From: Tolypothrix carrinoi HA7290-LM1
GTDB taxonomy: Bacteria > Cyanobacteriota > Cyanobacteriia > Cyanobacteriales > Nostocaceae
Reading direction: 5' to 3'
Length of the DNA stretch: 34,281 bases
Assembly (NCBI GenBank): GCA_019358935.1
Contig: JAHHIK010000091.1
Location: 1-34,281, forward strand
The position numbers and the translations under genes were made by a program. The notes under the pieces were generated by a model. That model was not told the origin of the DNA and made no database searches. It saw only the letters and a program-made list of their open reading frames with translations. Shown in pieces: positions 4,102 through 34,078 of this stretch. The number at the start of each line of letters is the position of its first letter. Within the stretch, counting starts at the first letter, position 1.

Positions 4102-6497
4102 GTGCGATACGATGGCGCACGAAGGGCTGGAAGCCCCTATACATAAAGCTTCCAAAAGATGAGTGAGGAACCGATTCCTCCAGTAAGCGTGTCCAAGGCT
4201 GTTCCTAACCTTCCCATGCACTACTGGTAACGGTGGTGTGTGAAGCGGAAAGTAAAGCCCAAGGAAGCATTTAGCCTAAAAATGTAACCGGGCAAAGGAA
4301 AGATTGGATGGGTGAATGCAAATGAATCCTTGTTAAGGCATCGTCAGAAAAGATCATCGAAAAGGCTGACACGGTGATATGAGTAAATGTACTGAATACC
4401 CCAAAATTATTCAGTTAAGGTTCAACTCCCCATTTTAGTTGAATTAGGACACCAAACACAAGGCGTGTAGAGAGGACACCCTACCCAATTAAATCTCATC
4501 CGTGCGTAACGTAGTAACCCCAATGAAGTCTGGGATTTACCCAGTAAGTAACCCGTAAGGGAAGCCGAATTCTTCAGTGGGTAAAGGATGCTGACACCAA
4601 GCGAAAGCCACCAAGCCGAAAGGCAAGGGGAATCCATAACCCGGTGGATAAAGCAATTGCCTAACCTGAAAGGGTGCTGACGGGAAGCAGGTGAGTCAAC
4701 TAAAATCCGTTGTAATGATTTCAAACCGAGGTGTAAGTTAGATGCAGGCAACTGTAAACCGAACCAAGGGACAGACTGATTGGAATTGTGTTAATCAAAG
4801 CAAAGCGAATCGGATTGTTAGGAATTTGAGACAGCGAATCTTTAGAGCCAAAGCTGAGGGCAACCCTAAAAAGGTTCGCTCGCTCCAGAAATTAATGTTA
4901 CGCAGCTATTCTAACCGCTTAGTTAGCGTTAGAAAAGTGACGCAGCATAACCGAGGTAAATATACACCAGGTATAGATAAAGTAGTAGTTAAAACTCCTG
5001 CTTACAGAGGACAATTAGTTGATAAAATCGCTAATTATACCCCTTGTAAATCATTACCTGCACGAAGAGTTTACATCCCAAAAGCTAATGGAAAGAAGCG
5101 TCCTTTAGGAATCCAAGTAATACATGACCGCGCCATACAGGCAATGGTTAAAAATGCCTTAGAACCCGAATGGGAAGCTGTTTTTGAGAGGTCTAGTTAT
5201 GGTTTCCGACCTGGGCGTAGCCCTCATGACGCAATTGCGAGCATCTATAACCTCGCTCGTCCGAATAAACGGAAAAAATGGGTTGTAGATGCAGATATTC
5301 AGGGGTGTTTTGACAACATTTCTCATGATTTTCTTCTAGAGCTTCTAACGGGCTTTCCGGCTCGTGAATTAATTAAACAATGGCTTAAAGCAGGTTACAT
5401 GGAAGGGGAGTTATGGCATCCAACAGATGCTGGTACTCCTCAAGGCTCTGTTGTCAGTCCTCTATTAGCTAATATAGCGTTACACGGTATGGAATCAGCC
5501 CTTGGAGTTAAGTATAATAAGGAGGGAGAACTCAGGGCAACAAGGGCATTAGTGAGATTTGCAGATGATTTTGTGGTATTTTTTGAGTCCAAAGAAGATG
5601 CAGAAAATGCAGTTAAAATTCTGACCGATTGGATGAAGTCTAGGGGACTTACTCTATCAGATGAAAAGACGAAAATAGTGCATTGAATTGAAGGATTTGA
5701 CTTTCTGGGATTCAACATCAGACACTATAAAGTCTCAACCAGTAAAACGGGATTAAAACTGCTAATTAAATCTAGTAAATCTTCCGTGTTAAAGATTCGG
5801 AATAAACTGCGTAATGAATGGCGTAACTGTCAAGGTAAGTCGAGAGATGCAGTTATTAAGAAGCTCAACCCAATTATCAGGGGAGAAGCAAATTATTTCC
5901 GAATAGGTGTATCCTCTGAAATATTCAATTCCCTCGACCATTGGCTGTATGAAAAGCAGAAAAGGTATGTCAAACATACTCATCGTCACAAATCTGATAA
6001 ATGGCGTAAGGCTAAATGTTGGGGAAAATTAAATCTTGATAGACCAAACGACAACTGGGTTTTTGGCAATAAACAAATCGGAGCCTATATGTTGAAATAT
6101 GCTTGGTTTCCTATTGAGAGACATGTCTTAATTCAAGGTAAATCATCACCTGATGACCCCAAACTAAAGGATTACTGGAGAAAGCGAGAGGAGGTTAAAG
6201 CTAAATCCGAACTAATCAAAAGCAGACAAAAGATAGCCCATCGGCAAAAATATGCCTGTCCCATATGTGGAGAATCCTTGTTAAATGGCGAAGAGTTACA
6301 TCTTCATCATAAAAAGCCAAAAAGTCAGGGCGGTGGGGATAATTACGGCAACATACAACTTGTTTATTTATACTGCCATCAGCAAATACACTCTGGTACA
6401 GTGAGTAGTTTATGACTTGCTTGATCCGGATGCGGTCAAAGTCGCACGTCCGGTTCTGAGGGGGCGGGATTATAGCGATATAGTCCTGCTACCCGAC
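4102..6497 (+). mobile_element. Full-length group II intron, probably inactive
   Basis: 5' GTGCG at 4102; DV GATCCGGATGCGGTCAAAGTCGCACGTCCGGTTC at 6423-6456; DVI ending ACCCGAC at 6497; encloses an RT ORF. Confidence 0.9.
4742..6415 (+). pseudogene. ltrA: Group II intron RT/maturase/HNH protein with one in-frame TGA at 5684-5686
   Basis: RT motifs GFRPGRS, DADIQGCFD, GTPQGSVVSPLLANIAL, RFADDF; VH*IEGFDFLG continues in frame into domain X and HNH (CPICG...HLHHK...GGGDNYGN...CHQQIH). Confidence 0.9.
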
Positions 6498-28253: not shown

Positions 28254-28290
28254 TTGACATTATGTAGAGCTAGTACTACAAATGTAGTAT
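28254..28290 (+). promoter_or_regulatory. Sigma70-type promoter overlapped by a TACTACA-AA-TGTAGTA palindrome
   Basis: TTGACA at 28254-28259; palindrome at 28274-28289 over the expected -10/+1 region. Confidence 0.6.
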
Positions 28291-28363: not shown

Positions 28364-28444
28364 GGGGCCGCGATTGGTGTTCGACTGCTCCGAAACCAAC
28401 AAACGGACGGTTGCAGGATTCGGGTTCGATTCCCGACGGCTCCA
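28364..28444 (+). ncRNA. Mini-tmRNA: tRNA-like domain only
   Basis: GGGGCCGCGATTGGTGTTCGAC 5' end; GGATTCGGGTTCGATTCCCGACGGCTCCA 3' end; G3-U70 pair; stemless D loop; only a short hairpin between the halves. Confidence 0.75.
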
Positions 28445-28480
28445 CTAGACTTGACTGCGGTTGAAGTTGTGTAGAGGCTT

Positions 28481-28689
<209 letters not shown>

Positions 28690-28706: not shown

Positions 28707-28928
<222 letters not shown>

Positions 28929-28936
28929 ATTTCCGA

Positions 28937-29128
28937 GTCATCCGTGCCCTAACAGAAGAAGCATACATACACATTCATAACGGCCCTAAGGTAGTAAAGT
29001 TCGAGCGATCGGACTAAGCGAAGCATGATTTCTAAGTAAGAGCGCAGATTTAGCGTGCGTGCCCACTGCCAATATTTGGTAAGAGCGACCGTAGCTGTAA
29101 AAAGCTTCTTGAACTTGCACGGAATGAT
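28937..29128 (+). ncRNA. Scaffold unit 2 with permuted 23S rRNA H67-H71-like cargo
   Basis: TCCGTGCCC...AGAAGCATACATAC / GCTTCTTGAACTTGCACGGA; cargo contains ATAACGGCCCTAAGGTAG and GCGACCGTAGCTGTAA. Confidence 0.75.
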
Positions 29129-29137
29129 TTAAGACTT

Positions 29138-29279
29138 AATTCCGCGCCCTAACTTGTGAAGTCTACACACACTCCGGCAACGGAATGCAGGTTCAAATCC
29201 TGTCGCTCCCTTTGATGGGAGCGTAGCCAAATTGGTATAGGCAATTGTGAAAACTGCTTTGCGTTCCTTGTGCGGAATT
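29138..29279 (+). ncRNA. Scaffold unit 3, YrlA-type circularly permuted tRNA mimic
   Basis: T arm GCAGG-TTCAAAT-CCTGT, loop-closed acceptor CGCTCCC-TTTGAT-GGGAGCG, then D arm GCC-AAATTGGTATA-GGC, inside AATTCCGCGC/GTGCGGAATT. Confidence 0.85.
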
Positions 29280-29400: not shown

Positions 29401-30147
<747 letters not shown>

Positions 30148-30155
30148 AATTTTCA

Positions 30156-30277
<122 letters not shown>

Positions 30278-30312
30278 CGATTTTATTTCATTTCAATATG
30301 GAGGTGAGAACG

Positions 30313-30639: not shown

Positions 30640-30653
30640 TTTACTTGGCAGTT

Positions 30654-30731
30654 GTTGCCGCGCCCCGATCGCAGAAGCTTACATAAGTCTGAAAAATTTA
30701 TACACAATGCTTCTACAACTTGCGCGGTGAC
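30654..30731 (+). ncRNA. Scaffold unit 5 with a lone tRNA-Phe-like anticodon stem-loop
   Basis: GCCGCGCCCC...AGAAGCTTAC / GCTTCTACAACTTGCGCGGT; cargo ATAAGT-CTGAAAA-ATTTAT. Confidence 0.75.
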
Positions 30732-30778: not shown

Positions 30779-32224
<1,446 letters not shown>

Positions 32225-33867: not shown

Positions 33868-34078
33868 TCCTGCGTGCCCCAACTCTTGGAGCCTACATAC
33901 TAGTACGAGAGGAAAAGTAACACTGTCAAATACAGTGGGCGTGTGTGAACGGGGAGTACGAAGAACCTGGGAGGTAGGCTTAAAAGTAGCTATCCTTGAA
34001 AGAGTGTGTAACAACTCACTCTTTGGAGTCCCTCTAGTAACTGAGAACACGCAATGCTCCACCAACTTGCACGCAGGA
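33868..34078 (+). ncRNA. Scaffold unit 6 with 23S sarcin-ricin loop and H42-H44 (L11-binding) mimic
   Basis: TCCTGCGTGC/GCACGCAGGA; TGGAGC/GCTCCA; CTAGTACGAGAGGA at 33900-33913; GGAGGTAGGCTTAAAAGTAGCTATCCTTGAAAGAGTGTGTAACAACTCACT at 33970-34020. Confidence 0.85.

Follow-up and report, generated by a model that had tools for sequence, protein, structure and literature searches.

What RNA is encoded at positions 28937-29128 of a cyanobacterial contig, and what does it carry? We analyzed a stretch of 34,281 nucleotides from Tolypothrix carrinoi HA7290-LM1 (assembly GCA_019358935.1, contig JAHHIK010000091.1, positions 1 to 34,281 of the forward strand; the whole stretch is here called the window). 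The original prediction, made from its letters alone, was that this unit mimics the 23S rRNA domain IV helices H67-H71 in circularly permuted form. The unit is very probably a Y-RNA-like RNA whose new effector module copies the 23S H67-H71 junction in pruned and circularly permuted form. The unit is real, conserved and structured, and its module is new within a known RNA class; comparison of homologous loci gives good support to the mimicry itself.

Architecture of the unit

The segments quoted in the original prediction are all present in the window where it placed them. The 5′ and 3′ ends of the unit pair as a long bulged stem around the second module, and the 5′ arm, which is repeated across the six units of the window, pairs with its partner at 29104-29128 in both minimum free energy and centroid folds. 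We take H69 to span 1906-1924 as the anchor for numbering, which follows E. coli. This numbering agrees with the offset between C1920 and Mycobacterium smegmatis (Msm) C2144 given in PMC9168844. An Rfam scan of the unit returned neither a Y RNA nor an rRNA match; at E <= 1 there was no match to YrlA (RF02553), and the module is 23S-like, not the permuted set of T, acceptor and D stem-loops that marks YrlA. The parts of the unit, all on the + strand, are as follows.

28937..28962, +, scaffold 5′ arm, Y-RNA-like: outer stem 28937-28947, bulge, inner stem 28956-28962
28977..28985, +, H69 loop end and H69 3′ strand (23S 1916-1924)
28986..28998, +, H70 lone-pair triloop (1925-1929) and 1930-1937
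28999..29014, +, H71-like hairpin, its stem corresponding to 1946-1949/1957-1960 at the family level
29018..29021, +, H70 3′ strand (1964, 1967-1969), bulge 1965-1966 absent
29023..29058, +, H67-like helix with a new closing hairpin, the joint made by permutation
29059..29086, +, H68 base (1835-1846/1894-1905) with the C1838-A1839 bulge, distal arm removed, 1840-1902 flipped to C-G
29087..29101, +, H69 5′ strand (1906-1911), which closes the permuted junction, followed by a linker
29104..29128, +, scaffold 3′ arm, paired with the 5′ arm

The H71-like hairpin carries a GNRA-type tetraloop in place of the 23S H71 loop, and 1938-1944 is absent. Pairing of the H69 5′ strand at 29087-29101 is weakly populated in single-sequence folding.

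Homologues and covariation

Homologues were sought with a pattern of the swapped segment order, with the reversed pattern as a control. The swapped order was found in 12 of 401 genomes of the order, against none for the control, and in 22 metagenome loci. Five of these 22 (L070, L072, L076, L081 and L087) were dropped as chance matches before alignment and later gave no covariance-model match. Two pattern scans of viral contigs gave no matches, and a phage collection gave only 28-nt matches, the annotated ones being 23S rRNA. Close copies of the unit occur in records named Nostoc and Scytonema. The alignment comprised 25 of 40 distinct real pattern cores, the other 15 being close variants that were left out; counts over 32 copies add seven held-out copies, with the held-out L009 excluded as nearly identical to L008. 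The loci of the metagenome copies span 36-71% GC, and the module is borne on several different terminal stems.

The H69 base, H71, H67, the bulk of H68 and the pairs 1933-1967 and 1934-1964 all emerged when RNAalifold folded the 25 homologues without structure input, with two-sided changes in 15 of the 25 predicted pairs. In the 27-pair structure derived from rRNA, 90.6% of 669 cells were paired, against only 19-40% when the structure was slid along the alignment, and 13 of the 27 pairs changed on both sides; the covariation of 0.377 was matched by none of 500 shuffles, a control that is inflated by the relatedness of the sequences. Among the same 25 homologues, the H71-like hairpin is 97.2% paired with two-sided change in five of six pairs, and the H67-like helix is 90.7% paired with two-sided change in two of three. 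The G1933-C1967 pair, itself predicted without input, is swapped to C-G in 3/25, and the pairs of the H70 3′ strand are found in all 20 real 23S segments examined. Further changes fall in the H68 base, where 1840-1902 is C-G in 31/32 copies (the 23S-type G-C being kept in L109 and in 19/20 real 23S segments) and 1836-1904 is C-G in 13, U-A in 10 and U-G in 2 of the 25. Pair 1906-1924, by which the permutation is closed, is G-C in all 25 aligned copies, one side being fixed by the search pattern, and in the seven held-out copies it is A-U in five and G-C in two. Because both strands of this closing pair change together away from 23S, pairing in trans with the real 23S is disfavoured. A covariance model built from the mimics found eight copies outside its training set at E < 1e-25, and over 151 genomes its only other kind of match was real 23S, in loci aligning to an rRNA operon.

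H67, the H68 base, the H69 base, H70 and H71 are retained with covariation in permuted order, as in a mimic. Judged by these covarying helices, selection on structure has maintained the cargo as a 23S H67-H71 junction in pruned and permuted form, and the central claim of a permuted mimic on a Y-RNA-like stem is upheld. The contrary outcome named with that claim, a match of only the 18-mer at 28977-28994 without pairing of H67, H68 or H71 in homologues, is not what is seen: H67, H68, H70 and H71 all pair and covary. In most copies the H67 extension ends in a small conserved hairpin (alignment columns 76-95) with no assigned counterpart in 23S; in the window copy this hairpin is degenerate.

Likeness of the single copy to 23S rRNA

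The source genome has no assembled rRNA (0/1 genome), and the 23S reference was therefore taken from relatives, in which real 23S from 5/5 genomes was confirmed as large-subunit rRNA. The window copy is identical to real cyanobacterial 23S at 45 of 59 mapped positions. Its 18-mer at 28977-28994 corresponds to 1916-1933 in the 23S of relatives with one mismatch, as the original prediction had it; it occurs once in the genome when up to three mismatches are allowed, and 1 of 1500 shuffled cargos yielded an equally good 18-mer against a 6.6-kb rRNA operon. The other pieces are weak in this copy alone: equally good results came from 85 of 5000 shuffles for the 3′ half against upstream 23S, from 1925 of 5000 for the H71 part and from 34 of 300 in a best-rotation test, and the 3′ half against the whole 3-kb locus was not significant (27 to 178 of 300 shuffles). 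It is the homologue profiles and covariation that settle the likeness. When the halves are aligned separately to 23S, a check put forward with the original prediction, the profiles place both 3′-half segments where the mimicry would have them: that of the H67/H68 5′ segment matches best at 23S 1831-1846, and that of the H68/H69 5′ segment matches best immediately upstream of H69 with a register shift of a few bases, each in 5/5 3-kb 23S loci.

What stays constant and what varies

Identical to 23S in all 32 copies are positions 1925-1932, 1936, 1837-1839, 1841-1843, 1896, 1901, 1948 and 1958, an identity that the search pattern had largely fixed in 25 copies and left free in seven, while the distal H68, 1938-1944, the H71 loop and 1965-1966 are absent relative to 23S. 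The point at which the module is opened varies. Opening at the H69 loop, as first described, is correct for the window copy and applies to 14/32 copies; it does not hold for the 13/32 with a full apical H69 hairpin, in which this hairpin is complete at the 5′ end and the junction is opened in the 5′ strand near 1908/1909, nor for five intermediate copies. Since the opening point varies, the constant object is the H68/H69/H70 junction and not the H69 tip. H70, the triloop at 1925-1929, the H69 base and the H68 base with its bulge are the constant features; the H69 tip, the H71 loop, the 1938-1944 loop and the distal H68 are variable or lost.

The Ro60 array

The unit is one of six with a common terminal bulged stem flanking a Ro60-fold gene; comparison shows its stem to be that of its five sister units. 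The cargos of these sisters are tRNA-like in natural order, tRNA-like in permuted order, a short hairpin, and rRNA-like. The features of the array, all on the + strand, are as follows.

28254..28289, +, putative array promoter, with a -35 hexamer at 28254-28259 and a TrcR-like palindrome at 28274-28289 over the -10 region
28514..28640, +, sister unit with natural-order tRNA-like cargo
29138..29278, +, sister unit with permuted (YrlA-type order) tRNA-like cargo, not among the Rfam matches of the window
30153..30280, +, sister unit with natural-order tRNA-like cargo
30653..30730, +, sister unit with short hairpin cargo, directly before rsr
30791..32224, +, divergent Ro60/Rsr gene (TROVE and vWA), 477 aa, assigned by profile, model and Foldseek
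33868..34078, +, sister unit on the common scaffold, with a sarcin-ricin-loop 12-mer (33903-33914) and a GTPase-centre copy (about 33954-34020)

The open reading frame (ORF) at 30791-32224 matches Ro60/Rsr by sequence profile (E 2.7e-7), and its model (predicted local distance difference test score, pLDDT, 85.9) has Ro60/Rsr structures as all of its top 12 Foldseek matches (E 4e-12 to 1e-9, TM 0.54-0.68). It begins 1.7 kb downstream of the unit on the same strand, within the 4 kb of a Ro60 orthologue that is typical of Y RNA genes. Elsewhere, at L088, the module lies between rsr and rtcB in an rtcR-rsr-YrlA-rtcB-rtcA operon, whose YrlA-like RNA scores 63.6 bits (cut-off 69); units in sister arrays likewise score below the gathering score of Rfam YrlA.

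The unit at 33868-34078 is a second rRNA mimic. Its 68-nt GTPase-centre copy, which we take to represent the H43/H44 region, scores 69 against a shuffle maximum of 43 (200 shuffles). In 23S, the two regions from which the unit is drawn are separated by about 1.5 kb. The sarcin-ricin-loop 12-mer is retained in 20/20 loci, and the first 98 bases of the unit match 81/300 family genomes (E <= 0.001).

Upstream of the array, the strict palindrome pattern finds two sites in the genome, the array promoter and C183:4538; the latter is the exact TrcR motif of PMC10272220 and stands upstream of a 112-aa ORF. At the array promoter it is a similar palindrome that covers the -10 region, the other published form of the motif fitting only with two mismatches, and a generic promoter scan missed the site. 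A TrcR-like palindrome occurs in 40/80 array loci, some overlapping, against 4/80 for the reversed control. TrcR represses translation-stress genes, including rtcB (PMC10272220).

Several other elements accompany the array. The natural-order tRNA-like cargos (28540-28613 and 30180-30252) are assigned the anticodons cta and tga by ARAGORN, and their loops vary widely among homologues. The first element after the promoter (28364-28447) is a miniature tmRNA tRNA-like domain without an mRNA part, at 47 bits, the Rfam gathering score. A 69-aa ORF ending in Gly (28719-28928) is present in nearly all arrays and has no family match, and ThiF/E1-like genes occur in 14 array loci, which together suggests a ubiquitin-like system. 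A 247-aa ORF (29404-30147) without a family match often lies just downstream of the mimic, and its look-alike clusters are about 56% viral; it is rejected for now as a dedicated partner, since only a remnant of it stands next to the mimic in L002/L035, and L019-L022 have it without the mimic. Spare genes for L7/L12 (four loci), EF-Tu (one) and EF-Ts (one) lie within or beside Ro60 loci (L104:4713-6363, L096:1391-2011, L098, L101), as found in a family scan of array neighbours that covered 46 of 126 ORF clusters. At L097:4855-7635, the Ro60 gene contains an intein bearing a LAGLIDADG domain. Nostocales plasmids (matches H1-H13, including NC_003273.1 of PCC 7120) carry unannotated scaffold-plus-tRNA units. 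The window also contains group II intron pieces (35-113, 4180-4292 and 6421-6497) and genes for a TraG-like coupling protein, a DNA polymerase A and helicases, which suggests a mobile element.

A proposed bait for proteins of the 50S interface

What might such a module do on Ro60, a protein of RNA surveillance? Y RNAs are described as two-module tethers, in which the second module links Ro60 to an effector (10.1101/312249). In 23S, the junction copied here is a docking site for S4-domain proteins: the S4 domain of TlyA reads Msm 2149-2153, which by the published offset are E. coli 1925-1929, together with the bulge of the H68 base (PMC9168844), Hsp15, RqcP and MTRES1 attach where H68 and H69 join (PMC9757039), and YlmH binds H69 and H68 (10.1101/2024.03.03.583159). 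Within the same region, A1932.G1968 is a sheared pair in 23S (PMC4665369). In half of cyanobacteria, YlmH and RqcH occur and RqcP does not (10.1101/2024.03.03.583159); the source genome encodes TlyA-, RluD- and YlmH-type S4 proteins, RqcH and two RtcB, with no stand-alone Hsp15/RqcP among its six S4 matches. The published contacts of S4 factors are among the bases that the mimic never changes, and the genome has such proteins. The likeliest reading, we infer, is that the unit is induced by stress and serves as a tether to Ro60 or a bait for proteins of the 50S interface.

In such a mechanism, the array would be transcribed from its TrcR-repressed promoter when translation is impaired and then cut into units, Ro60 would bind the terminal stem, and the cargo would present the interface junction and capture a protein that normally docks there. 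Candidate captives are the S4-domain factors of ribosome quality control, YlmH/RqcP/Hsp15, or the S4 domains of TlyA or RluD; the captured factor would be tethered to the Ro60 ring, or titrated from split or damaged 50S subunits. That the cargo is a bait for some protein reading this junction is probable, and that this protein has an S4 domain is a tentative proposal to which we give slightly less than even weight.

A number of observations weigh against this reading. The invariant bases may serve only the junction's own fold; their invariance was also partly set by the search pattern, which fixed 1924-1932, most of 1835-1843 and 1896-1901 in 25/32 copies and left them free in seven. In the window unit, the rRNA-like fold has -46.6 kcal/mol against a minimum of -52.5 kcal/mol, the median gap over the 32 copies is 4.0 kcal/mol, and the probability of the H69 base exceeds 0.5 in 6/32 copies, against 0.77-1.0 for real 23S in the same model. 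The contacts of S4 factors extend to P-site tRNA or the H69 tip, the latter missing in loop-opened copies, and there is no S4-domain gene among 261 ORFs adjoining arrays. As for Ro60 binding, the Rsr motif GNCGAAN0-1G is missing in 6/6 window units; the window scaffold is of a variant type that goes with a divergent Ro60, and the canonical motif occurs on the stem of L089, one of six copies on other scaffolds. Expression is indicated weakly, by contigs from RNA runs of relatives that span the unit in 2/4 runs, give neither ends nor strand and possibly include DNA; in runs X2 and X7 the unit is not covered, X2 having 171 other letters there.

Competing explanations

The chief competitor of the bait reading, which we regard as unlikely yet worth serious attention, is a ribotoxin decoy or sensor, in which the array shows parts that are targets for enzymes attacking translation (the anticodon loops, the sarcin-ricin loop, the GTPase centre and H69) and the unit would either soak up a nuclease or modifier of the H69 region or mimic a cut product engaging Ro60 and RtcB. 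The closed H69 loop that such a target calls for is intact in 13/32 copies and missing in 14/32, the window copy included, and the 1938-1944 loop, presumably a cut site of MazF and of degradation, is deleted. The sarcin-ricin 12-mer, intact throughout its 20 loci, the adjacency of rtcB and rtcA in L088 and the spare L7/L12, EF-Tu and EF-Ts genes beside rsr fit this explanation. A bacterial nuclease that cleaves H69 is known, shown on eukaryotic ribosomes (PMC13189344), and a sponge has been considered for the TrcR-regulated tRNA array (PMC8421152); our literature search found no toxin that cuts bacterial H69. It is improbable that the module is instead a 30S-binding mimic, using the 50S side of bridges B2b/B2c/B3 to deliver small subunits to Ro60, where they would be stored, repaired or degraded. 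The stem of H71, a helix with a role in bridge B3, is retained, but its pairs vary freely, B2a is dispensable in loop-opened copies, and a 130-nt fragment would be expected to bind 30S weakly. The retained H70 region does lie near bridges B2b and B2c (PMC4665369), and Rsr acts in rRNA maturation (PMC4201824).

Y RNAs gate Rsr (PMC4201824, 10.1101/312249), and the module could be a generic gate with no specific partner, its compact fold of rRNA origin serving to close the Ro60 cavity or to withstand PNPase. We think this very improbable: the unpaired 1926-1928, 1936 and 1838-1839 are identical to 23S in 32/32 copies from loci of 36-71% GC, which is more than a generic gate needs. Slimmer still is the chance of a decoy for ribosome recycling factor (RRF), at which the original prediction hinted together with bridge B2a. 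RRF contacts H69-H71, and H69's base and the stem of H71 are both retained; the H69 tip is missing in the 14 loop-opened copies, the H71 loop is replaced, and no RRF gene was found in the 46 of 126 neighbour clusters scanned. Because neither the H69 loop nor the H71 loop is constant across the 32 copies, the hint at B2a and RRF is doubtful. To rRNA pseudogene debris, mis-assembly or chance likeness we leave almost no probability. The weak single-copy statistics beyond the 18-mer and the source genome without assembled rRNA would suit it, but it is largely refuted by covariation. The compensatory changes lead away from the 23S sequence, the swapped order recurs in 12/401 genomes and its reversed control in none, held-out copies are recovered at E < 1e-25, and the module is found on several different terminal stems.

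Relation to known systems

Ribosomal-protein leaders, like the unit, copy a protein-binding site of rRNA, and they act in cis on ribosomal-protein mRNAs. The unit, in contrast, belongs to a non-coding array as a closed cassette, and no ribosomal-protein gene lies consistently downstream of it; in the window it is followed by other cassettes, the 247-aa ORF and rsr, which is not the arrangement of such a leader. Compared with 23S domain IV H67-H71 (RF02541), the unit has the same helices and the sequence identity given above, but it is permuted, with the H68 arm, 1938-1944 and 1965-1966 deleted, the H71 loop replaced and 1840-1902 flipped in all copies but one. The closest relative in design is YrlA (RF02553; PMC4201824, 10.1101/312249), which has a terminal Ro-binding-type stem and an effector module as the unit does. 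As with YrlA, the unit lies close to Ro60 on the same strand, with YrlA-like units nearby, and its module is a permuted translation RNA whose natural ends are closed by a hairpin. Unlike YrlA, it copies 23S H67-H71 and not tRNA, the window has no YrlA match, its scaffold lacks the Rsr motif and the opening point of the module varies. The Anabaena trn L-array and TrcR regulon (PMC8421152, PMC10272220) share with the window an array of tRNA-like RNAs behind a TrcR-type box, a context of translation stress and a link to rtcB. They differ in that the window cargos each sit inside a Ro-type stem, rRNA copies are included and rsr is adjacent; the main texts of the two papers make no mention of Ro60, TROVE or Y RNA.

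The effector modules of bacterial Y RNAs described in PMC4201824 and 10.1101/312249 are tRNA-like or plain hairpins. A limited literature search found no rRNA-mimicking Y RNA. With a definite 50S surface copied in the module, the candidate partners come down to a short list, and the question of what Y RNAs tether to Ro60 becomes one for a pull-down experiment. The unit further supplies, in about 130 nt, a minimal H67-H71 junction made by nature, and indicates that domains of rRNA can be rearranged by permutation and put to new use as RNAs acting in trans. More broadly, there is about an even chance that the arrays at Ro60 work as a display of the translation machinery with exchangeable parts. 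One stem would bear tRNAs in two orders, the permuted H67-H71 junction and the fused sarcin-ricin/GTPase-centre module; induced together under translation stress, these would capture factors of ribosome quality control, or enzymes that attack ribosomes, on the Ro60 ring. If so, each cargo would name a docking surface under conflict.
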